A DNA stretch of 38,936 nucleotides from a virus (lineage: Duplodnaviria > Heunggongvirae > Uroviricota > Caudoviricetes), in IMG/VR virus record IMGVR_UViG_2802429244_000013, positions 1-38,936 of that record. One strand, given 5' to 3'. A model generated the notes under the pieces. The model was not told the origin of the DNA. It worked only from the letters and a program-made list of their open reading frames with translations, and did not search any database. Position 1 is the first letter of the stretch. Each line of letters begins with the position of its first letter. Positions 3,293-37,501 of the stretch are shown here, one piece after another. Both the position numbers and the translations under genes were made by a program.

Positions 3293-3972
3293 CAGAGTAA
3301 TACTCCCCATGCCCCTACATCAAAACCACTGATAAATTCGTTATCCATATCAAAACCAAAAAATTTTGAACCTTCCGATGGGGTTTCCACCGAAGGTGTT
3401 TCAATACCACCCGCCCACACCCCGGCGGCTTTTACTGTGAGATATCCCTGTTTAATTGCAGCAATTAACTCACGCGATACATCTGAAATATCAGTATCAG
3501 GAAAGACCCAGACCGATATCGTCATGTCCTGGTTATCGACAATCTGCATTCGCAGCCCGGATCCTGCTGTCGCCGTGTCAAGAATTGCTGGAAGCGAATC
3601 ATTCCGTCCGTCCCAGTTATTAATCGCAATCTTCGCTTTAAGGATGACACGATAAGTTTCATCGCTGAGATACATGTATCCGGAATCAGGATCATATGGC
3701 CCCTGCCATACCCCCTGATCATATCCAAGCCCGTCGGTATCCCAGCTGAAATAGACACCTGAGATAGGCTGGCTGACAACACGGCTACGTCCGATCCACA
3801 ATCCCAGAATGTCAAGTTGCACACCAACCGCAGAGTCAATATCAAATGCAGTAATCAGCCCTCTGGTGGCCGCCGCAACATCAATAAGCGGCCGGGTCAT
3901 CAGATCAACATGCGCAAGAAATTTAGGTTTGGTGGCGTGGTAGTTCGTGATTAGTTCGGTGTATTTGCTCAT
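3292..3972 (-). CDS. tail or baseplate protein (Mu gp48-like)
   Basis: 226-aa ORF coupled to the baseplate J-like gene upstream and the tail fibre downstream; position matches Mu/SfV-type baseplate clusters. Confidence 0.55.
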
Positions 3973-5168
3973 GACTCCACCGTTATAACGATATTTTCCG
4001 GGGTACAGGACGCAGATTCGTTGTATCTGATATCAATGTTTGATGACGACAAAGCCCCCGGGGATTTCCCAATCGTCAGTTCCTGAATATCGTAATAGCG
4101 TGCATTCCCGCCACTCACCACGCCAAGATTCGCCGGTGAGTAAATGCGACTTAAAAGGACCGAATCACCAATCATCAGACTATTGATATAGTCGGAAATA
4201 GCCTGCTGGATCTGCTGCCCTATCTGTGAGGTATAACCCGTAAAAACTTTTAATTTAATCCGGGCATAAACAGGCACATCACTGGAACGCGAGAATTTGA
4301 TTACATGGGGATTGCCGTATTTATCCGGAACCGTAACGGATGTTGTGCCGTGAGTGGCTGTCCCCTGGCCTTTATTCCCTCTGATAGCCTGAGCAATATC
4401 CGTCACATCACCGCCATCTACAATTACAGCAACAGAGTGTGGCGGTAACCCGTTACCGTCCTCCGAACCAGTATCGTTTTCATAGAGTTTGTGGCGGGTT
4501 ACACCGGTAACATTAGAAACAGCACCATCCAGTGCTTCAAATGGGGTTATTGATGGCAACGCAACACTTTGCGACTGGCGGATACGTAACTCCGCATCAG
4601 TTTCTGCCGGAGTGCCCACAGTAGCCGCAGCAGGATTGGTTACCGAAACCCAGCCACGGGTTGGCGTATTAATTTCAGTGATTGTTCCAGCCAGCGCCGC
4701 CACTGCACCACTGACGGAACATGTTGCGGTCGCCATCACTGTACCATCCACGCCGACCACCACTGAAGCAGGCAAACGCCATATCACATTATTACTGTCT
4801 TTCACGCTGCCATTAATGATGGTTGTTCCGGCAGTTCCTGTAAGAAGCAAATCAACCGTAGAGTTCGTCGCGCCTTTACGTGAAATACCATTTATTTTCA
4901 CGTTACTGGTCAGTGCAGCCCCATAGCCGGTTGCCGGTGAAAAACAGTTGTAGACAGTTATCGCCATATTATTGGCATCATGAATCGCCAGCGCCATCAG
5001 AGCCACCATCTGGCCGTCTTTGCTGTCCGGTTCGAGGTAGGCATCACTGCCATAAATCTGCTGAAAATAGCTAATCAGGGTGCTGAGTATCGTCTGATAA
5101 TCAGGCGCACTGATCCCCTCTGCGGTTACCTTTGCAGATAAACCGAGAGAATCAAGGTTCAGAGCCAT
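3969..5168 (-). CDS. baseplate J-like protein
   Basis: 399-aa ORF with typical size and position for the baseplate J / Mu gp47 family; stop and start overlap its neighbours. Confidence 0.7.
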   Translation of the reverse strand: MALNLDSLGLSAKVTAEGISAPDYQTILSTLISYFQQIYGSDAYLEPDSKDGQMVALMALAIHDANNMAITVYNCFSPATGYGAALTSNVKINGISRKGATNSTVDLLLTGTAGTTIINGSVKDSNNVIWRLPASVVVGVDGTVMATATCSVSGAVAALAGTITEINTPTRGWVSVTNPAAATVGTPAETDAELRIRQSQSVALPSITPFEALDGAVSNVTGVTRHKLYENDTGSEDGNGLPPHSVAVIVDGGDVTDIAQAIRGNKGQGTATHGTTSVTVPDKYGNPHVIKFSRSSDVPVYARIKLKVFTGYTSQIGQQIQQAISDYINSLMIGDSVLLSRIYSPANLGVVSGGNARYYDIQELTIGKSPGALSSSNIDIRYNESASCTPENIVITVES

Positions 5169-12127: not shown

Positions 12128-13273
12128 TTAGCGAACAACGTTAATCTGTACGTCAGCGTAATGAACCGCGCCTGCAAGTTTTATTGCAGCCTGAATCACC
12201 GGAGCCTTACGGGCTTCACGTTCTGATTGTGCCTGTTCATCCAGCGACTGGGCGTATACGTAATAACCTTTGGGCAGCGTGTCACCTGATGACAACTGGC
12301 CAAGGTCGCCACCGTTCCATACGCCCGGAGCAATCAGTCCATTCTGAACGGCCTGATCCAGTGATTTTTCAACATTTGATAACAGTCGGGTAATACCGGC
12401 TTCAGTCTGGGGAACCTTCGTGGTGCTGGTATAAAGCAGGTTATAGAGGTTGGTCTGCACATAATTCTGTAACCAGTCCAGGCCGTGGCGTTCATCAAAG
12501 AAATCGCCGTTAGCCATCACTCCCTGCTGGAGGATAGCTGTATCATTCTGGTAGTACACGAACACATTGCAGTTTTTTGCATCAAGTGCCGATGCCTGGC
12601 TGACTGTCAGTGTTTCATACCCGACACCCGGCTCCTGCTTAAACTTGAGCGTAATCGCGGTATTACTGCCATTGAAATTAACCGTGAATGCCCGGCCAAA
12701 TGCAGATAACGCAGCGTATTTATTACCCGATGAATACTGAATAAAACTGCGTGAATATCCGGCGGCTTTCAGTTTTGATGCCAAATCATCGCTGGATGCA
12801 GTCTGCAGGCATTTCTCATCGCTTGTCGTAATCGCCAGAATACGGCTTACAGAAGAGGATTCGATCGCCGCAGCCACTTTCAGCCAGTCTGCATCCGGAA
12901 TATCTTCATCGTCTGCAATCCCCAGCCCATACCATGAAGTATAATCAAGCATGGCATTCACAGCCTGCTCCAGCGTCTCAGGCGTGGCCTGTTCGCTGTC
13001 TCCCTTCGTTTTCACCCAACGACCAACAAAAACCTCCTGAGGTTTCGGTGATTGAGAGAAAAACACCTGCGCAGCCTTATATTCTGGTGATTCCACGCCA
13101 AAATCTTTTCCAATATCTTCCGCGGCAGAATAACGGCGAATGCGCTCACTTACCGGAATGATTGTGGACGGGCCGAGAATGAGTAATGCACCAAAATTTC
13201 GCCCTGATGCTGCACGCGGCGACATGATCACATCAACATTAACAACGTTTGATACAGGCAAGCCCTGTGCCAT
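12128..13273 (-). CDS. tail sheath protein
   Basis: 381-aa ORF upstream of the tube gene with a GGAGA RBS; size and position typical of contractile tail sheath. Confidence 0.7.
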
Positions 13274-32856: not shown

Positions 32857-33522
32857 TCAAACAAACCCAGCCGCTTTCCGGCGTTCATATTCCTGTTTCA
32901 GTAACTCAATTGGCGTTGGCCCCGACGGGCGTTTGGGTGCCGCCAGTTGTCGCCGGACTGGCGGAACGCCCAGGCCGTTACTAACATGCTTTGCCCATTT
33001 CGTCAGCTGCCGTTCTGCAAGCCGTTTTAATTCCCCTTCGGTCATCTGGCGCTCAATCCCCTTTGAACGCATCTCGAGGCAAATGTGATACAGCACGGGC
33101 TGAGACCACGGATATTTATCGCTTCCGTCGTATCGCCAGGACTCGTTGCGCCAGCGGCGGTACTCCTCCATCACAGCATCCACCGTCAGACCAAATGGAT
33201 TTGCCCCGCTCTCCGAAATCAGCGCCACAAACTCAGCCAGGTCCGGAGGCCATGTTTCACCTGCCCTGCAACGGTCCATGCACTGGCGGCAGACCTGCCG
33301 GATTTGCTGCTCAGTCATCGCGCCAATCTGTGCAATCCAGAGCTTCGAAGGTGCGGCCCCGTTCTTCTGGGTCCAGCGGTTCGAATAAACCTCCCCCATG
33401 AGTTCCCACAGCTTCCACGCCGTTTCCGTCGCTGATAAATCCGTTTTCACGTTCCCACTGCTCACGTGCTGCCCGAATTTCCTGAACTGCCCGTGATGCG
33501 GTGCCGCCTGGTGCTGCTGCAT
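32857..33522 (-). CDS. P: replication protein P-like (helicase loader)
   Basis: Central and C-terminal regions resemble lambda P as recalled; ATG at 33522 has a GGGGGTGA RBS but overlaps the upstream gene by 211 nt, so the start is uncertain. Confidence 0.6.
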   Translation of the reverse strand: MQQHQAAPHHGQFRKFGQHVSSGNVKTDLSATETAWKLWELMGEVYSNRWTQKNGAAPSKLWIAQIGAMTEQQIRQVCRQCMDRCRAGETWPPDLAEFVALISESGANPFGLTVDAVMEEYRRWRNESWRYDGSDKYPWSQPVLYHICLEMRSKGIERQMTEGELKRLAERQLTKWAKHVSNGLGVPPVRRQLAAPKRPSGPTPIELLKQEYERRKAAGFV

Positions 33523-34435
33523 GGCTCACCCCCTTGCTGACTGGTTTAACCTGCGCCCTGACGTGATTTACGTGACGGGCGAATTTCTGCTCCCACTGAA
33601 CCTGCGTGAAAACTTTCCCCTCCGCTGCCCAGTAGTCCCGGAAGGCGGCAAGTTCAGTTGGTGTAAATTCCGGCTCAGGAAGAGCCACGCCCCACAGCGC
33701 AGCCCGTCGTCGAAAATCCGGCGACGGATGCCAGCCATCGGTCATAGGAAATTTCCCGATGGGTTCGCTCAGGACTTCCAGGTAATCAGGTTCCGCTGTC
33801 TGCAACGGCACGCCATTTGCCTCACTGGCCGGAGCACTCTCGCGCACGCGCGCGTTATGTGTGGGGTTTATATATCTGTTATCTGTTATCTGGATACCGC
33901 ATGACAAAGCGTTAGCCTTATCCTTAGGCTTATCCTCAGGCAAAGGGATTGCCTTATCGAATGCCATCCCCAAAGCCTCAGAAACCCCGTAGGACGCGGC
34001 TCTCAGCGATTCCCTGGCCTCCCATTTGAGAGGGCAATCAGGAATTAAAGCGAATGCCTTTGCCCAGGATTTAATGACATTTATCGAGTTTGGCGGATTG
34101 TGTTTCGCAGCATTCGGGAGCCAAAAAACTCTGGCTTTGATATCTGCTTTCACCATGCCAAGATTCATGGCTTCGCCTAAGGCTAAGTCAAAGGCTTCGA
34201 TATCCCACCCCAACTCTTCAGCCATTGCTGCCCGCCCGGCTTTAAACAACCCAGGAATAATCCCGGTAAATGGACTGGTCAGCAGATAAATAAACAAACT
34301 CTGTCCACTTGGAGGCAGAGGAGATAACGCCCTAAATTTGGGATCATCCCATATCGTTATTTTTACCTTGCGATAAGGCTCATTGTTTGCCTTAGTTTTT
34401 GGCATGGGATTTGGCATGTTTTTAGCCTTAACCAT
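33311..34435 (-). CDS. replication initiation protein (YdaU-like with DnaT-like C-terminal motif)
   Basis: Track ORF begins at TTG 34489; ATG at 34435 with GAGG RBS is the likely start; C-terminal FTPTELAAFRDYWAAEGKVFTQVQWEQKFARHV resembles the DnaT/replication-protein DNA-binding motif. Confidence 0.5.
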   Translation of the reverse strand: MVKAKNMPNPMPKTKANNEPYRKVKITIWDDPKFRALSPLPPSGQSLFIYLLTSPFTGIIPGLFKAGRAAMAEELGWDIEAFDLALGEAMNLGMVKADIKARVFWLPNAAKHNPPNSINVIKSWAKAFALIPDCPLKWEARESLRAASYGVSEALGMAFDKAIPLPEDKPKDKANALSCGIQITDNRYINPTHNARVRESAPASEANGVPLQTAEPDYLEVLSEPIGKFPMTDGWHPSPDFRRRAALWGVALPEPEFTPTELAAFRDYWAAEGKVFTQVQWEQKFARHVNHVRAQVKPVSKGVSHAAAPGGTASRAVQEIRAAREQWERENGFISDGNGVEAVGTHGGGLFEPLDPEERGRTFEALDCTDWRDD

Positions 34436-34514
34436 AATTGCCTCATCTGGTGTCGAACCTTCCTCCGGATATAATCTGTGATTCCCCAATCAACAGAACC
34501 AAAGGAGGTTCGAC

Positions 34515-34970
34515 ATGTCTTTAATGGCTGTTTGCCAAAAAATTAAAAATCACATGCGCACTGTGTACAAAATTAACCAGCACGACCACGACATGGTTAA
34601 CCTGGTAACATGCAGGGCTATAGTTCTCACCCGCTTCCACCTGATTCTTACAAATCACTCACGGGATTCTCTCCTGAGCCCCAGTAGCTATGATTCGCTG
34701 GCGAGATTGCTATACCAGGCAAGTGAAAAACGTATTACTGATCCCTTATCTGTTTCCCCTGTCCTTGCTCTTCACATTCTGGAAGACGCTCTCTATGACC
34801 CCCGTCAGGAATGCGACTATCAATTTCTTGAAGCTGAGAAATCAATGAGAGAATGGTTCGTTGAATATCGCGAACGGCAGCAAAAGTTATCCTCAGAGTA
34901 TTCAGAACTTCCGCAACTTCGCTGGAGTGATCTTCCGAACGAATTATTTGCTCTGACCCCAGAAAATTAA
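34515..34970 (+). CDS. orphan hypothetical protein (151 aa) on the opposite strand, between ydaT-like and replication genes
   Basis: Strong AAAGGAGG RBS 6 nt before the ATG; rare-codon-rich; hairpin gagcgcag/ctgcgctc (34997-35020) just after the stop; a long antisense ORF overlaps it. Confidence 0.5.
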   Translation: MSLMAVCQKIKNHMRTVYKINQHDHDMVNLVTCRAIVLTRFHLILTNHSRDSLLSPSSYDSLARLLYQASEKRITDPLSVSPVLALHILEDALYDPRQECDYQFLEAEKSMREWFVEYRERQQKLSSEYSELPQLRWSDLPNELFALTPEN

Positions 34971-35167
34971 TTCTTGGGGATAAATCGTCCATAACTGAGC
35001 GCAGGCTAAGTTCTGCGCTCTGAAGCTTCCGAACCGAAGTTTCTGTACCCCAACCCGCAATTTCTGCATTTTTTGCAAGTTTCAGGATCCAGTCTCGTAG
35101 TTCGCCGGGAGTAAGATTTCCAGCATTGATAAACGGTTTGATTTTCATTGTTAGTTACCCTATTCAC

Positions 35168-35590
35168 TTAATGAACAACAACAGAATCGCCGGACGAACC
35201 GCCGTCGCTGAAATGCGCTTTACGGTAAACAGCCTGGACCGCATCATCATGCGCATCAATTGCCGTACTCAACGCTTCCTGCGCCGCCAGTAATGCACGG
35301 CGTTCCAGGGTATCGAAGATGCAGAGTCGGTGACGCAGCTCCCGCGGAAGGATTGCCAGAATTGCTGGGATCAGCTTCTGAATTTTTTCCCTTTGCGCTT
35401 CCGTTTCACCTTTTAACCAACGGCGATAGATGTTCTGCTGATTGTTCCAGTCCTTGCCTGGTGTCAGAGACAATTCACCTCCCCCCTGGCGCAGATATTC
35501 TTCAGTAATTGCGTTAGCGACCCACGCCTGCCCTTTTTCGGCTGCCAGGGCTAACAACACTGATTCGATGTGCTCATGCCTGATTTTCAT
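35168..35590 (-). CDS. ydaT: YdaT-like protein (Rac prophage toxin-like)
   Basis: 140-aa ORF matching the size and recalled sequence character of Rac YdaT; overlaps the ydaS-like stop. Confidence 0.65.
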   Translation of the reverse strand: MKIRHEHIESVLLALAAEKGQAWVANAITEEYLRQGGGELSLTPGKDWNNQQNIYRRWLKGETEAQREKIQKLIPAILAILPRELRHRLCIFDTLERRALLAAQEALSTAIDAHDDAVQAVYRKAHFSDGGSSGDSVVVH

Positions 35591-35849
35591 GAATCAACTC
35601 CGGTTCATCTTGTGTGTTAGCCTTACATCCAACAGATAAACCGTCGGTTGGATCCGGGTATAAATCCGGCCGTAATTCATGAGGAGTCACCCCAGTTGCA
35701 AGGTAAATTTGACGGACCCGTTCCCCTGTCGGCACCCGTCCATTGTATTCATTTGCCCATTTGTGTATTTGAGACGGCCAGGCCCCTATCGCGCGCCCTA
35801 GTGGGCGAATACCACCGGCAATCTTTATTGCTTTGTCCAAAGCAGTCAT
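35574..35849 (-). CDS. ydaS: YdaS-like Cro-type HTH protein
   Basis: 91-aa ORF with strong GGAGG RBS; MTALDKAIKIAGGIRPLGRAIGAWPSQIHKW fits the YdaS/Cro-like HTH family; divergent from the repressor. Confidence 0.65.
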   Translation of the reverse strand: MTALDKAIKIAGGIRPLGRAIGAWPSQIHKWANEYNGRVPTGERVRQIYLATGVTPHELRPDLYPDPTDGLSVGCKANTQDEPELIHENQA

Positions 35850-35877
35850 ACAACCTCCACGTCAATTAAACACAACA

Positions 35878-35906
35878 ATTGTTCACCTAAAAAGAACATA
35901 AGTCAA
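35878..35906 (-). promoter_or_regulatory. PR-like early promoter with operator
   Basis: Minus strand TTGACT (35901-35906), 17-nt spacer, AACAAT (35878-83); operator tgttcacctaaaaagaaca (35880-35898) lies in the spacer and -10. Confidence 0.45.
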
Positions 35907-35918
35907 CACCCTGAGGAA

Positions 35919-35946
35919 TTGTTAGTGTTCACTGAACGGTTATAAT
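35919..35946 (+). promoter_or_regulatory. repressor promoter giving a leaderless or near-leaderless mRNA
   Basis: TTGTTA (35919-35924), 16-nt spacer, TATAAT (35941-35946) only 6 nt before the repressor ATG, with no Shine-Dalgarno; tgttcactgaac half-site palindrome in the spacer. Confidence 0.45.
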
Positions 35947-35952
35947 TGCCAA

Positions 35953-36342
35953 ATGGACATGAGAAAAAAGCAATACGACACCCCGCTGGCGGAGAGATTA
36001 GATGCGATCTCGCAACAGCATCATTTAAGCGGTTCAGATTTAGCGCGCATCGCTGGAGTGGGCCGTTCGTCAGTTAATGCCTGGAAAAAGAGAGGGACAA
36101 TCAGCAAAGATTCCGCGGCCAAAATAGCGGAAGCCACAAATGTTTCCCTTTCCTGGCTACTGACGGGAAAGGAGGATACGAGCAGGGAAGTGCTTGATGA
36201 TGATGAGAAAGCCCTGCTCGATGTTTACAGAAACCTACCTCCTGTAGAACGCAGAAATATGCTTGCAGCTTTTCAAATGCGACTTCAAAAATTGACTGAA
36301 TTTTACTCGGAATACGTTGATCCGATAACACGTCAAAAATAA
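35953..36342 (+). CDS. prophage repressor, DicA/RacR-like HTH protein without a peptidase domain
   Basis: N-terminal XRE-type HTH (LSGSDLARIAGVGRSSVNAWKKRG); C-terminal helical region resembling DicA; no S24 peptidase motifs. Confidence 0.7.
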   Translation: MDMRKKQYDTPLAERLDAISQQHHLSGSDLARIAGVGRSSVNAWKKRGTISKDSAAKIAEATNVSLSWLLTGKEDTSREVLDDDEKALLDVYRNLPPVERRNMLAAFQMRLQKLTEFYSEYVDPITRQK

Positions 36343-36363
36343 TTCTTTATTTTACAAAATCAT

Positions 36364-36387
36364 ACCGCCGGAAGGCGGTTTTTTTTT
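36364..36387 (+). terminator. rho-independent terminator after the repressor gene
   Basis: Hairpin ccgcc-ggaa-ggcgg followed by nine T residues. Confidence 0.65.
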
Positions 36388-36407
36388 ACCTTTATGGATT
36401 CATTGTG

Positions 36408-36436
36408 TTGACATATGTTCATCTAAATAGAACAAT
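36408..36436 (+). promoter_or_regulatory. PL-like promoter with operator, driving the rightward early operon
   Basis: TTGACA (36408-13), 17-nt spacer, AACAAT (36431-36); operator tgttcatctaaatagaaca (36416-36434) matches the PR-side operator at 17 of 19 positions. Confidence 0.45.
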
Positions 36437-36503
36437 GTATTCCATCAAAGCACAACGGTGCGACAGGTTTCAGTTCCGCCACCCGGCGTTAAGGGGAAAA
36501 AAG

Positions 36504-36722
36504 ATGGTTGGTGAAGATCTGGTTGTTATTAACGGTCAATTGTGCAGCAAAGATGTGGCAGCCATGCTTATTAGCAAGGTTCTTCCAACTGTGCTGGAGG
36601 TCATTGCAGAAAAAGTAAAGGCTGGTCGTCCAGACAAGGAAGTTGAAGAGGCGGCAAAAACAGTTGTTCATGCCGCTACAGAAGCAATTATTTTGAAGAG
36701 CCTAGTTTCGCCCAAGCCTTAA
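36504..36722 (+). CDS. hypothetical small protein (72 aa), first gene of the rightward early operon
   Basis: ATG at 36504 with AAGGGGAAAAAAG RBS; the track ORF extends upstream to GTG 36405. Confidence 0.45.
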   Translation: MVGEDLVVINGQLCSKDVAAMLISKVLPTVLEVIAEKVKAGRPDKEVEEAAKTVVHAATEAIILKSLVSPKP

Positions 36723-36882
36723 GTGAATCGGCGCTTTTTTTAGCATCACGTTCATTGAGTAGTGACAAAAACTCATTCTCAGCATTCTCGATTTCCGAGA
36801 AAAATTCTTGATGAGTTGTTTCTCGCTGCGATCTGATGCTGAAAGCTAAAGCAAGTAGCCAGGCTTTGTCTTTATTATCCAT
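36688..36882 (-). CDS. hypothetical small protein (64 aa)
   Basis: ATG at 36882 with TAAGGT RBS; convergent with and overlapping the 3' end of the preceding plus-strand gene. Confidence 0.3.
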   Translation of the reverse strand: MDNKDKAWLLALAFSIRSQRETTHQEFFSEIENAENEFLSLLNERDAKKSADSLKAWAKLGSSK

Positions 36883-37039
36883 AGGAATACCTTATTACTG
36901 GTTGTGTGAGAACTCCAGTATACCACCGAGCCTGAAGTGGTAAAAAGACAGGCGCACAACACGAAGGCGCATTTCCGGTATTCATAAAGAGTCGGTCTTG
37001 TCTGTTAAATTTAAATGGTGGGAGTGCGCCTCCGGTTGT

Positions 37040-37114
37040 AAATAACGACATTGCTGTGTGTAGTCTTGGCGGCATCAGTTTTTTCTTGAAGTTCGGCTGA
37101 TGTCCGCCCTTTTT
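37040..37114 (+). ncRNA. dicF: DicF-like small RNA candidate
   Basis: TTGGCGGCATCAGTTTT matches the recalled DicF core at 16 of 17 positions; long hairpin ggcggcatcag / ctgatgtccgcc then CTTTTT; lies between the repressor-proximal genes and the kilR-like gene. Confidence 0.35.
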
Positions 37115-37279
37115 AAAGTGAATTTTGTGATGCGGTGAATGCGGCTAAGCGCACGCGGAACAGTTAAAAGCATCAGTGTTATGGGTGGATTATCCGGCGT
37201 TAATTGTTAACTGGTTAACGTCACCTGGAGGCACCAGGCACCGCATCGACAAAATTCATTTGTAAAAATGGAGATAATT

Positions 37280-37501
37280 ATGATTGCTCATCACTTCGGA
37301 ACTGATGAAATACCACGTCAGTGTGTGACCCCTGGCGATTATGTTCTTCATGAAGGTCGGACATATATCGCCTCGGCAAACAATATTAAAAAGCGAAAAC
37401 TTTATATTCGTAGCCTGACTACAAAAACATGCATTTCTGACTGCATGATTAAAGTCTTCCTCGGTCGTGATGGTTTACCTGTAAAGGCGGAGTCATGGTA
37501 A
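37280..37501 (+). CDS. kilR: KilR-like small protein (73 aa), putative cell-division inhibitor
   Basis: ATG at 37280 with GGAG RBS; 73 aa; synteny with Rac kilR-ydaE-racC-recE. Confidence 0.45.

Follow-up and report, generated by a model that had tools for sequence, protein, structure and literature searches.

A probable exchangeable immunity cassette of a Rac-like temperate prophage, with a short DicA-like repressor and putative TGTTC-N9-GAACA operators

In prophage CP-933P (Sp12) of E. coli O157:H7, a short non-cleavable repressor is encoded divergently from a YdaS-family Cro followed by YdaT, and a PL-like promoter with the same -35, -10 and operators as its PR lies beyond the repressor unit (PMC8630535). 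Its promoters have been named PRM933P, PR933P, PL933P and PRE933P, the last activated by YdaT, and its switch is bistable; the leaderless repressor mRNA, the PL/OL region and the non-cleavable nature of the repressor were shown experimentally, leaderless translation of paaR2 being proven by 5' RACE and N-terminal sequencing (PMC8630535). YdaS and YdaT are regulators that bind DNA and are the counterparts of Cro and CII (PMC5917428, PMC8630535, PMC11879457), and the YdaT-box of Rac, ATGATTCATGAAAATCAA, has been footprinted (PMC11879457). The repressors of Gifsy-1, -2 and -3 (GfoR, GtgR and GfhR) are small proteins resembling the N-terminus of CI, are not cleaved and are paired with LexA-controlled antirepressors, with DicA and RacR listed among their relatives (PMC3121763). 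DicA, PaaR2 and the Gifsy repressors, of a size comparable to that of the repressor described here, are not cleaved (PMC8630535, PMC10448788, PMC3121763).

The divergent arrangement known from CP-933P was also found in the 38,936-nt stretch of DNA analysed here (the window), whose relevant features are the following.

35168-35590, minus strand: ydaT-like gene (140 aa), CII analogue, second in the leftward (PR) operon, with Pfam, PHROG and PDB matches
35574-35849, minus strand: ydaS-like gene (91 aa), Cro analogue, first in the leftward operon, overlapping ydaT by 17 nt
35580-35597: YdaT-box, TTGATTCATGAAAATCAG on the minus strand, centred on the ydaT start codon
35878-35906, minus strand: PR analogue, TTGACT (35906-35901), 17-nt spacer and AACAAT (35883-35878), 9/12 in the consensus promoter scan
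35880-35898: main right operator, TGTTC-N9-GAACA, which fills the PR spacer and extends over the PR -10, one of a unique pair of 19-mers
35919-35946, plus strand: PRM analogue, TTGTTA, 16-nt spacer and TATAAT, 10/12 in the promoter scan
35920-35938: candidate second, weaker operator, TGTTA-N9-GAACG, in the PRM spacer, containing TGTTCAcTGAAC (35926-35937)
35953-36342, plus strand: repressor gene (129 aa), five-helix HTH domain and C-terminal helical hairpin, without a peptidase domain
36364-36388, plus strand: intrinsic terminator of the repressor transcript, found by scan, with a 6-bp stem (5 GC pairs) and a T run
36408-36436, plus strand: PL analogue, TTGACA, 17-nt spacer and AACAAT, 10/12 in the promoter scan
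36416-36434: left operator, TGTTC-N9-GAACA, within the PL spacer and -10
36443-36496, plus strand: conserved leader of the PL transcript, with hairpins GCAC/GUGC (36450-36461) and CGCC/GGCG (36477-36488), then UUAAGGGG
36504-36722, plus strand: first ORF of the rightward operon (72 aa), PHROG 23495 (unknown function), E 6.5e-50
37055-37501, plus strand: kilS/DicF-like sRNA (37055-37109) and kilR (37268-37501), followed by ydaE, a racC-like gene and recE

The region from about 35567 to 36499 is, with high probability, an exchangeable immunity cassette of a Rac-like temperate prophage, working through a switch of the kind proposed below. The traits shared by its family, namely the spacing of the -10, the paired operators, the co-variation of recognition helices and the exchange as a cassette, point to the PR/OR-PRM-repressor-terminator-PL/OL core of a lambdoid immunity region. 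The structure proposed in the first-pass annotation was borne out by the comparative data, but its apparent unusualness was not, as the layout is documented for Rac, Qin and CP-933P (PMC8630535, PMC10448788). Judged by its sequence, the immunity type is previously undescribed, with a layout that is standard for Rac/Qin/CP-933P-type regions; to that switch class it adds an immunity specificity, consisting of TGTTC-N9-GAACA and a 129-aa DicA-like repressor.

The resemblance to each described system is partial. As in the window, the -10 of CP-933P lies exactly 6 nt before the repressor ATG, but a BLASTP comparison of PaaR2 (from the paaR2 locus recovered via the published primers) with the window repressor gave nothing at E <= 100, and the latter was rejected as a PaaR2 homologue for want of sequence similarity. 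CP-933P co-transcribes paaA2-parE2 with its repressor, whereas the window has a terminator straight after the repressor gene and no TA genes; the CP-933P operators are GTTTAGTAA repeats at several sites, as opposed to one strong TGTTC-N9-GAACA site per promoter. Among named proteins, the closest homologue of the window repressor is DicA, from the DicA/DicC/dicBp system of Qin (PMC10448788, and Bejar et al. 1988 as cited there), with a C-terminal LLxxFxxLPxxE motif within the full-length similarity; the gene order (cro-like, repressor, promoter with operator) and the PL leader element are also common to both. The Qin operator half-site is TGTTAG and that of the window TGTTCA, and dicA, unlike the window repressor gene, lacks a -10 at the distance of 6-7 nt from its ATG, so that the leaderless design is not common to Qin, a defective prophage whose antirepressor Rem has no homologue in the window.

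Rac (PMC5700373, PMC5700377, PMC11879457) has a YdaT 93% identical to that of the window, a YdaT-box in the same place and the same downstream early-left genes (kilS, kilR, ydaE and recE), and its PR and PL each consist of TTGACA, an operator in the spacer and a -10, as in the window. RacR, however, has 158 aa and resembles the window repressor in the HTH only, the Rac operators are of the TTAGGC type, and the Cro-like proteins are 30% identical. These Rac-like flanks around a differing repressor, operators and Cro indicate that the window holds a Rac-like phage with a swapped immunity cassette. In its general logic and geometry the window resembles lambda, whose cI mRNA is leaderless with, as here, a -10 at 6 nt before the ATG, and the GGAGGTTGT-ATG context of cro is the same in both. 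Lambda CI has an S24 peptidase and cleaves itself, whereas the window repressor has neither property; lambda has three operators per promoter, whereas one strong operator is evident here; and the window PRM differs from that of lambda in being near consensus. The distance between OR and OL is 536 bp in the window and about 2.3 kb in lambda.

In Pfam, only HTH families were matched by the 129-aa repressor (Phage_CI_repr, E 1.8e-12, and HTH_3), and no peptidase family (S24) was matched in Pfam or NCBIfam, in agreement with the HTH repressor without a peptidase domain described by the first-pass annotation. The best NCBIfam match was DicA (NF007257), over the full length and with 38.2 bits against a cut-off of 101; the two proteins are 25% identical over their full length, and a C-terminal LLxxYRxLPPxE motif is common to the window repressor, DicA and the M15 repressor. 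On these sequence comparisons, it is a remote homologue of DicA and not DicA itself, and it fits the short DicA/RacR/Gifsy type, whose members have about 125-160 aa, carry a CI-like HTH at the N-terminus, end in a short helical segment and lack a cleavage motif. The AF2 model (pLDDT 82.5) has helices at residues 11-71 and 83-121, the C-terminal 47 residues being predicted as two helices. A PDB sequence search found no solved structure for the repressor; Foldseek searches with the model matched the DNA-binding domains of 434 and P22 c2, as well as SinR of Bacillus subtilis (1b0n_A), the best full-length PDB match, with an HTH and a C-terminal helical hook. The SinR match is weak (E 7e-4, TM 0.41-0.50, 23% identity) and SinR has no phage context, so the likeness to SinR/SinI is taken as a mechanistic analogy, not a family assignment. 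The antagonist SinI captures the C-terminal hook of SinR.

The divergent intergenic region between the ydaS-like and repressor genes measures 103 bp and holds the PR-like (35906-35878) and PRM-like (35919-35946) promoters; these and the PL analogue were all recovered by an independent consensus scan. The two 19-mers, TGTTCACCTAAAAAGAACA (35880-35898) and TGTTCATCTAAATAGAACA (36416-36434), were the only matches to the degenerate 19-mer (<=3 mismatches) in the 38.9-kb window, where 0.03 were expected. They lie in a 37-nt inverted repeat (35878-35914 versus 36400-36436, 76% complementary) that takes in both promoter cassettes, which match at 22/30 positions in promoter register. The near-identical, oppositely oriented cassettes that had been proposed to flank the repressor gene were therefore found where they had been placed. 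The PR cassette was kept in all homologous loci compared, and in close relatives (89-99% identical DNA) the operator half-sites were invariant while the 7 central bases varied. The position of the PL analogue is that of Qin dicBp and PL933P.

The operators evident here are one strong palindrome per promoter and, within the PRM spacer, a single site that is weak or atypical, with possibly a half-site upstream of the PL -35. The PRM-spacer site (35920-35938) has 2 mismatches to the half-site pattern, and a relaxed half-site search of the whole window found 24 matches against 18.65 expected, which is not above chance and supports no third operator; the candidate is thus proposed from its position and conservation. 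TGTTCAC within the PRM spacer was kept in all TGTTCA-type loci, and TTAGC-type loci have TAGCC-N3-GGCT at the equivalent position, but the right half of the site was not kept in loci L005, L011 and L017. From its placement, we infer a role in autorepression or as a Cro site. DNA looping was considered and rejected: the OR-OL spacing was 530-549 bp in most loci and 724 bp in L010, and with no constant helical phase no claim of looping is made.

The comparison set comprised about 20 homologous loci. Homology to E. coli R1 and NCCP 13892 spanned exactly 35567-36499, homology blocks ended at 35567/35598 and 36473/36499, and E. coli M15 had a different repressor, cro and operator set between identical flanks; on this sequence comparison, 35567-36499 is exchanged between prophages as a single cassette. 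In 19 loci, the PR and PL cassettes of the same locus were identical at a mean of 17.05/24 positions, as against 13.2 +/- 1.3 of 24 (maximum 17) between heteroimmune loci. Operators of the TGTTCA, TGTTAGC, TAAGC, TAAACA and TGTCAG types each occurred in both promoters of their own locus, and the operator type was tracked by the repressor motif AW(K/R)KRG versus W(Y/F/H)KRG and by the Cro helix PSQIHKW versus PSSLNKW. The recognition helices of the repressor and of the Cro-like protein both covary, and the comparison does not allot sites between them. These loci are ready natural variants of operator and recognition helix for specificity studies. The repressor subfamily was found in at least 21 loci in Escherichia, Salmonella, Klebsiella, Enterobacter, Cronobacter, Erwinia, Serratia, Sodalis and Xenorhabdus, and the TGTTC-N9-GAACA immunity type in 82 of 5,426 complete E. 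coli genomes, with many O157:H7 strains among them. A phage database had no close DNA relative of the cassette, and a search of a literature collection found no paper containing these operator sequences.

The TATAAT of the PRM analogue ends at 35946 and the repressor ATG begins at 35953, the intervening 6 nt (TGCCAA) having no Shine-Dalgarno-like tetramer, as the first-pass annotation had noted. A -10 hexamer (TAnnnT) was found 6-7 nt before the repressor ATG in 21/21 family loci, compared with 1.6% of the ATGs in the window used as a control; these loci share 31-99% protein identity, and the bases between -10 and ATG differ among them, none being Shine-Dalgarno-like. The distance is also 6 nt in lambda PRM and in CP-933P paaR2. 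Transcription from the PRM analogue is predicted to start at the A of the ATG (35953), and the repressor mRNA is probably leaderless, as had been suggested for this locus; the 6-7 nt spacing across distant Enterobacterales generalises the results for lambda cI and paaR2.

The two genes of the leftward operon are adjacent, divergent from the repressor gene, and both carry Pfam domains above the gathering score. The ydaS-like product matched YdaS_toxin (E 6.2e-10, 39.2 bits, cut-off 30), PHROG 35 (transcriptional repressor) and, by sequence, the Cro proteins XPH1 (5w8y) and Xfaso (3bd1), with 30% identity to Rac YdaS. The ydaT-like product matched YdaT_toxin (E 4.1e-11, 43.6 bits, cut-off 21), the PHROG 'CII-like transcriptional activator' (E 2e-36) and the PDB entries 3c4r and 8bt1, the latter being the YdaT of CP-933P, and was 93% identical to K-12 Rac YdaT. 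Both matches support the view that the left-facing promoter drives ydaS/ydaT-like genes. The YdaT-box is the best match in the window to TTGATT-N6-AATCAA (1 mismatch), and the footprinted box of Rac lies at the same position with a nearly identical sequence; by analogy, a PRE-like promoter directed at the repressor gene probably lies here.

Such a promoter bears on whether the repressor mRNA is leaderless, since a longer PRE-type transcript from near the YdaT-box could carry a leader, as could, on a shorter scale, initiation at the in-frame second ATG (35959), which some RefSeq records give as the start (127-aa forms) and with whose methionine (Met3 of the window repressor) the start Met of L008-L010 was aligned by MAFFT. 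At the DNA level, however, the first ATG, and not the second, lies 6 nt from the -10 in every one of the 21 loci, and where a locus has a single ATG, this sits at the first-ATG position. Neither ATG (35953, 35959) is preceded by a Shine-Dalgarno, the identical -10/ATG geometry is leaderless by experiment in CP-933P and lambda, and a PRE transcript would, as in lambda, come on top of the one from PRM and not in its place, all of which makes a leadered mRNA unlikely. Even less credit is given to a reading of the two cassettes as duplicated or recombined promoters whose palindrome is not the operator of the adjacent repressor, being bound by the Cro-like protein, a host factor or nothing. The window sequence by itself shows no protein binding, and the -10 AACAAT lies within the palindrome, so that promoter constraint could add to its conservation. 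Yet each heteroimmune locus carries its own palindrome in both promoters, whereas the -35 TTGAC is common to all; the half-sites are fixed while spacers drift, the recognition helices of both regulators vary with operator type, and for the corresponding sites of Qin, Rac and CP-933P, binding or regulation by the repressor has been demonstrated by experiment. With this evidence, an operator of the adjacent repressor is by far the better reading of the palindrome, and its contrary is very improbable.

The function of the repressor has also been read in other ways. The first-pass annotation proposed an addiction module, in which the main evolved role of the repressor would be to restrain YdaS/YdaT 'toxins', its loss killing the cell and so stabilising the prophage. 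The Pfam names YdaS_toxin and YdaT_toxin and the closeness of the window YdaT to that of Rac speak for this, as does the essentiality of racR in K-12 Rac, where silencing induces ydaS/ydaT with loss of viability (PMC5700373, PMC5700377). These proteins are, on the other hand, the Cro- and CII-equivalent regulators cited above (PMC5917428, PMC8630535, PMC11879457), the Cro-like protein matches solved Cro structures, and neither YdaS nor YdaT showed a known toxin fold or family beyond the disputed Pfam names. Genes for replication, Q, lysis, head and a contractile tail are present in the window, and PL controls kilR too, so that death on derepression needs no dedicated toxin; there is moreover no labile-antitoxin logic, as the repressor acts on transcription and loss of the element removes the toxin genes as well. 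Lethality upon repressor loss is thus the expected outcome of prophage derepression, and addiction as a distinct function is unsupported and quite unlikely, which corrects the 'toxin' reading prompted by the Pfam names and leaves current understanding unchallenged. Classical SOS induction by RecA-stimulated self-cleavage, as in lambda CI, would suit an N-terminal domain of the CI/434/P22 c2 HTH class, but the protein has 129 aa, no S24 peptidase match and a C-terminus of two predicted helices, its sole Ala-Gly falls inside the HTH, and repressors of homologous architecture are not cleaved. Without a peptidase domain, induction cannot proceed by that route, which the first-pass annotation had already considered improbable and which can be practically dismissed.

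The Gifsy system is a likely model, by analogy, for the way in which such repressors are inactivated, but its dinI-antirepressor-irsA unit, which in Gifsy phages lies with its LexA box 1.3 kb downstream of the replication genes, is absent from the window. No CTGT-N8-ACAG LexA box was present in the window, relaxed window scans for the 20-mer LexA box and CTG-N10-CAG gave nothing convincing, and tblastn of the window found no DinI homologue; a Gifsy-type LexA-controlled antirepressor unit was rejected accordingly. The window likewise has no homologue of the Qin antirepressor Rem. Its sole antirepressor-family gene, ORF6N (25154-25765), belongs to the late operon and is preceded by Q, a PR'-like promoter and a terminator; this position implies late expression, and ORF6N is therefore an unlikely primary trigger. 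Induction would most likely occur by binding of an antirepressor to the C-terminal helical hairpin, or by stochastic or environmental flipping of the switch.

The switch that we propose would then work as follows. The 129-aa protein would be a CI analogue of the short DicA/RacR/Gifsy type, most likely binding as a dimer to the TGTTC-N9-GAACA operators, whose occupancy would shut both the ydaS(cro)-ydaT(cII)-replication-late operon and the kilS-kilR-ydaE-recE operon. We infer that the near-consensus PRM starts at the A of the repressor ATG and gives the leaderless mRNA, while the weaker PRM-spacer site would probably serve autoregulation and would be the likely primary target of the Cro-like YdaS protein, with a bistable switch as the outcome; YdaT, the CII analogue, would act through the box centred on the ydaT start codon. 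A more specific, minimal version with one strong and one weak operator in place of three is doubtful when its elements are taken jointly. It would have a wide geometry, TGTTC-N9-GAACA, over PR and PL and, within the PRM spacer, a compact palindrome or one half-site by itself; the repressor and the Cro-like protein would distinguish the two geometries through their spacing, and leaderless translation from the near-consensus PRM would be obligatory in the design. For induction, an antirepressor outside LexA control in cis would have to capture the SinR-like C-terminal hook; it might come in trans from another prophage, or might be the late-operon ORF6N protein.

The terminator of the repressor transcript lies 22 nt past the repressor stop codon, between the repressor gene and the rightward promoter, and was kept in relatives. 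Judging by the sequence context, the operon served by the rightward promoter is of the Rac early-left type (kilS, kilR, ydaE and recE), and the presence of kilR, ydaE and recE downstream upholds the earlier assignment of a rightward operon to the second cassette. The kilS-like sRNA is nearly identical to K-12 Rac kilS, with an Rfam DicF score of 41.1 bits, under the gathering score of 48; kilR was identified by PHROG Kil (E 1.1e-37) and by the RefSeq annotation of matching E. coli loci. Rfam gave no match for the PL leader and no boxA was seen in it; of its 8 predicted pairs, 2 showed compensatory change, a weak covariation in stems of only 4 bp. The element recurred in heteroimmune loci, among them Rac and the Qin dicBp leader, and coincides with the right-hand mosaic joint of the cassette (homology breakpoints 36473 and 36499). 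In E. coli M15, the 72-aa ORF comes after a different immunity region, and in E. coli relatives of the window the promoter at the PL position, which is that of dicBp, drives ydfA-dicB.

Reading of positions 35000-37200 of the window bore out, base for base, the two 19-mer operators (TGTTC-N9-GAACA) that the first-pass annotation had placed around the repressor gene. A blind consensus scan yielded exactly the three promoters that the annotation had implied, including the mirrored promoter-operator cassettes. These elements and their neighbors are as follows:

35880-35898: right 19-mer, TGTTCACCTAAAAAGAACA, inside the leftward promoter (pattern search of the window)
36416-36434: left 19-mer, TGTTCATCTAAATAGAACA, inside the rightward promoter (pattern search of the window)
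35906-35878, minus strand: PR analogue (leftward, ydaS/ydaT), TTGACT-17-AACAAT (consensus scan)
36408-36436, plus strand: PL analogue (rightward), TTGACA-17-AACAAT (consensus scan)
35919-35946, plus strand: PRM analogue (repressor promoter), TTGTTA-16-TATAAT (consensus scan)
36364-36388: intrinsic terminator after the repressor gene, ahead of the rightward promoter (same consensus scan)
35920-35938: candidate second site in the PRM spacer, containing TGTTCAcTGAAC
36504-36722: 72-aa ORF downstream of the rightward promoter

The degenerate 19-mer pattern, searched with ≤3 mismatches, was found twice in the window against 0.03 expected, with no other match, and both copies lie within a 37-nt inverted repeat (35878-35914 versus 36400-36436, 76%). 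The -10 hexamer AACAAT departs from consensus because the right operator half-site provides most of it (GAACAAT).

Homologous loci were obtained via their proteins. The half-sites TGTTC and GAACA were invariant in close relatives (89-99% identical DNA), with variation at the seven central bases; more distant loci carried a different palindrome, yet always in both promoters of one locus (types include TGTTAGC, (A/G)TTAGC-N5-GCTCAAT, TAAGC-N5-GCTTA, TAAACA-N4-TGTTTA and TGTCAG-N7-CTGACA). With the shared -35 hexamer excluded, PR cassettes matched the PL region of their own locus at a mean of 17.05 of 24 positions, versus 13.2 +/- 1.3 of 24 (maximum 17) between heteroimmune loci, those of another repressor/operator specificity. 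The repressor motif AW(K/R)KRG accompanies TGTTCA-type operators and W(Y/F/H)KRG the TGTTAGC, TTAGC and TGTCAG types (loci L006-L010); the Cro helix shows the same split, PSQIHKW versus PSSLNKW. Qin and Rac share the design of a -35, an operator in the spacer and a -10, with operators TGTTAG-N6-CTAACA and of TTAGGC type, respectively. The candidate site at 35920-35938 had no significance alone in a half-site search of the window; every TGTTCA-type locus nevertheless keeps TGTTCAC there, and loci of TTAGC type have TAGCC-N3-GGCT in its place. We take the site as a putative OR3 analogue, which would serve autorepression and Cro binding.

The leaderless repressor mRNA proposed at first pass agreed with a TATAAT 6 nt before the repressor ATG (35953) and no Shine-Dalgarno-like tetramer ahead of it. 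All 21 family loci (31-99% protein identity, Escherichia to Xenorhabdus) have a TAnnnT hexamer shortly before the ATG, at a distance of 6 nt in 17 of them and 7 nt in 4; the intervening bases differ and an SD-like tetramer never occurs (0/21). Across the window, just 1.6% of ATGs are preceded by such a hexamer. The -10 register is kept by this first ATG and not by the second (35959) of some RefSeq annotations. The 6-nt spacing is also that of lambda PRM (TAGATT-TAACGT-ATG) and of PRM933P of CP-933P (GATAAT-TACCAC-ATG), for which leaderless translation was shown by 5' RACE, N-terminal sequencing and mass spectrometry (PMC8630535). The same check detected no -10 6-7 nt before the ATG of dicA or of the E. 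coli M15 repressor gene, the latter preceded by the SD-like AAGG (within AAGGA). Because these two genes lack the geometry, the comparison indicates that the leaderless design is a subfamily trait, not general to short repressors, with a separate origin in lambda and paaR2.

As annotated, the repressor has an HTH and no peptidase domain, its 129-aa product matching HTH families only (Phage_CI_repr, HTH_3). Qin DicA is a remote homologue over the full length (25% identity, including the C-terminal motif LLxxYRxLPPxE) and the best NCBIfam match, at 38 bits versus a cut-off of 101, whereas likeness to RacR is confined to the HTH and PaaR2 shows no resemblance. A C-terminal LLxxFxxLPxxE motif also occurs in the DicA-like repressors of M15 and Qin. 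In the AF2 model (pLDDT 82.5; best full-length PDB match SinR) a linker joins a five-helix domain, similar to those of 434 and P22 c2, to a helical hairpin (residues 83-121), and the remaining sequence would leave no room for an S24 peptidase fold.

RecA-mediated autocleavage had been considered unlikely, and this architecture excludes self-cleavage. Known inactivation routes are LexA-controlled antirepressors in Gifsy (PMC3121763), inhibition of DicA by Rem, and flipping through DicC, either stochastic or driven by urea or heat (PMC10448788). No LexA box, dinI homologue or rem homologue was found across the window; the induction trigger may lie outside it or in another prophage. The single antirepressor-family gene in the window encodes a 203-aa ORF6N protein (25154-25765, minus strand; PHROG 2379 'anti-repressor', E 7e-93). 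It is a late gene, since it comes first behind the Q-like gene and an adjoining stretch (25766-26035) with a PR'-like promoter (TTGACT...TATATT) and the terminator ACACGCCGCGAGCGTGTTTTTT; Stx phages carry their stx genes in this slot. Its product may target the repressors of other resident prophages.

The leftward genes were correctly assigned, matching YdaS_toxin and YdaT_toxin. The YdaT-like protein shares 93% identity with YdaT of K-12 Rac and matches solved CP-933P YdaT (8bt1) and the PHROG family 'CII-like transcriptional activator'; the YdaS-like protein is 30% identical to Rac YdaS and matches the solved Cro proteins 5w8y and 3bd1. The ribosome-binding context of ydaS, GGAGGTTGT-ATG (35847-35859), is identical to that of lambda cro, although the two proteins belong to different Cro families. 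At 35580-35597, centered on the ydaT start codon, lies the window's best match to the YdaT-box as published (TTGATT-N6-AATCAA); this is the position footprinted in Rac (PMC11879457). Because of this position and of the YdaT-activated PRE-like promoter in CP-933P (PMC8630535), a putative PRE analogue likely reads through ydaS towards the repressor gene. A YdaT-box-like sequence, TTTATTTTACAAAATCAT (36346-36363, 2 mismatches), between the repressor stop codon and the terminator is probably a chance match, being absent from the Salmonella loci though kept in the closest E. coli relatives.

The suggestion that repressor and ydaS/ydaT act as an addiction module was not supported. RacR is essential in K-12, and its depletion induces ydaS and ydaT (PMC5700373, PMC5700377). 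Jobling's letter (PMC5917428), the CP-933P work (PMC8630535) and a 2025 YdaT study (PMC11879457) all show YdaS and YdaT to be Cro and CII analogues. Here kilR and a full lytic programme are under the repressor's control as well, so no dedicated toxin is required to explain death when it is lost, and addiction as a distinct function is very improbable.

The replication genes upstream of ydaT are of DnaT-domain and lambda-P-like type; beyond them are the Q-like gene and an endolysin, followed by terminase, portal, capsid, sheath, tape-measure, baseplate and fibre genes. After the 72-aa ORF come a kilS/DicF-like sRNA, kilR, ydaE and a racC-like gene, then recE, of which the window has the start. 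Because of the gene content of both flanks, the window is identified as a contractile-tailed temperate prophage of Rac-like type, and the feature as its immunity region. The prophage is a hybrid (e.g. 12128-13273, 3969-5168, 32857-34489): its early region is Rac-like (YdaT, the replication genes, kilR, recE), and its late genes (tail sheath, baseplate wedge) are those of a phage with a contractile tail. The sRNA (37055-37109), upstream of kilR, hardly differs from the kilS that RefSeq annotates in K-12 Rac and scores 41.1 bits for Rfam DicF, below the gathering score of 48; directly after it, an STnc100-like match (37111-37287; 42.3 bits, gathering score 47) overlaps the kilR start. Two small genes oppose the early operons and may be lysogen-expressed morons: a 151-aa ORF inside the PR operon (34515-34970, plus strand; its counterpart in E. 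coli R1 is annotated as an ECs1072 family protein) and a 64-aa ORF inside the PL operon (36688-36882, minus strand; PHROG 22868, unknown function) with its own promoter-like site (36944-36917).

In E. coli R1 (98.9%) and NCCP 13892 (89.1%) the match to the window was limited to 35567-36499, and the rightward promoter drives ydfA(DUF1391)-dicB, in the position of dicBp in Qin. M15 showed the reverse pattern: ydaT to the left of the cassette and the 72-aa ORF plus kilR to its right are near-identical to the window, but the repressor, cro and operators that they enclose are different. The cassette has one joint where ydaS and ydaT overlap and the other within a conserved leader; such positions and swapping correspond to the behavior of lambdoid immunity regions. 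Each architectural element has an experimentally studied counterpart; the immunity type itself appears uncharacterised so far, since its operator sequences were not found in the literature searched. Among 5,426 complete E. coli genomes, 82 carry the cassette, many O157:H7 strains included; identity is 80-90% in 79 of the 82. In the leader past the PL analogue (36443-36496, ~55 nt), which gave no Rfam match, two short hairpins (GCAC/GUGC, then CGCC/GGCG) precede UUAAGGGG. This leader is common to heteroimmune loci, including the Qin dicBp leader (3' half only in Rac), and contains the mosaic breakpoints; it may serve as a linker for recombination, as a processing site, or as an element in translation or antitermination.
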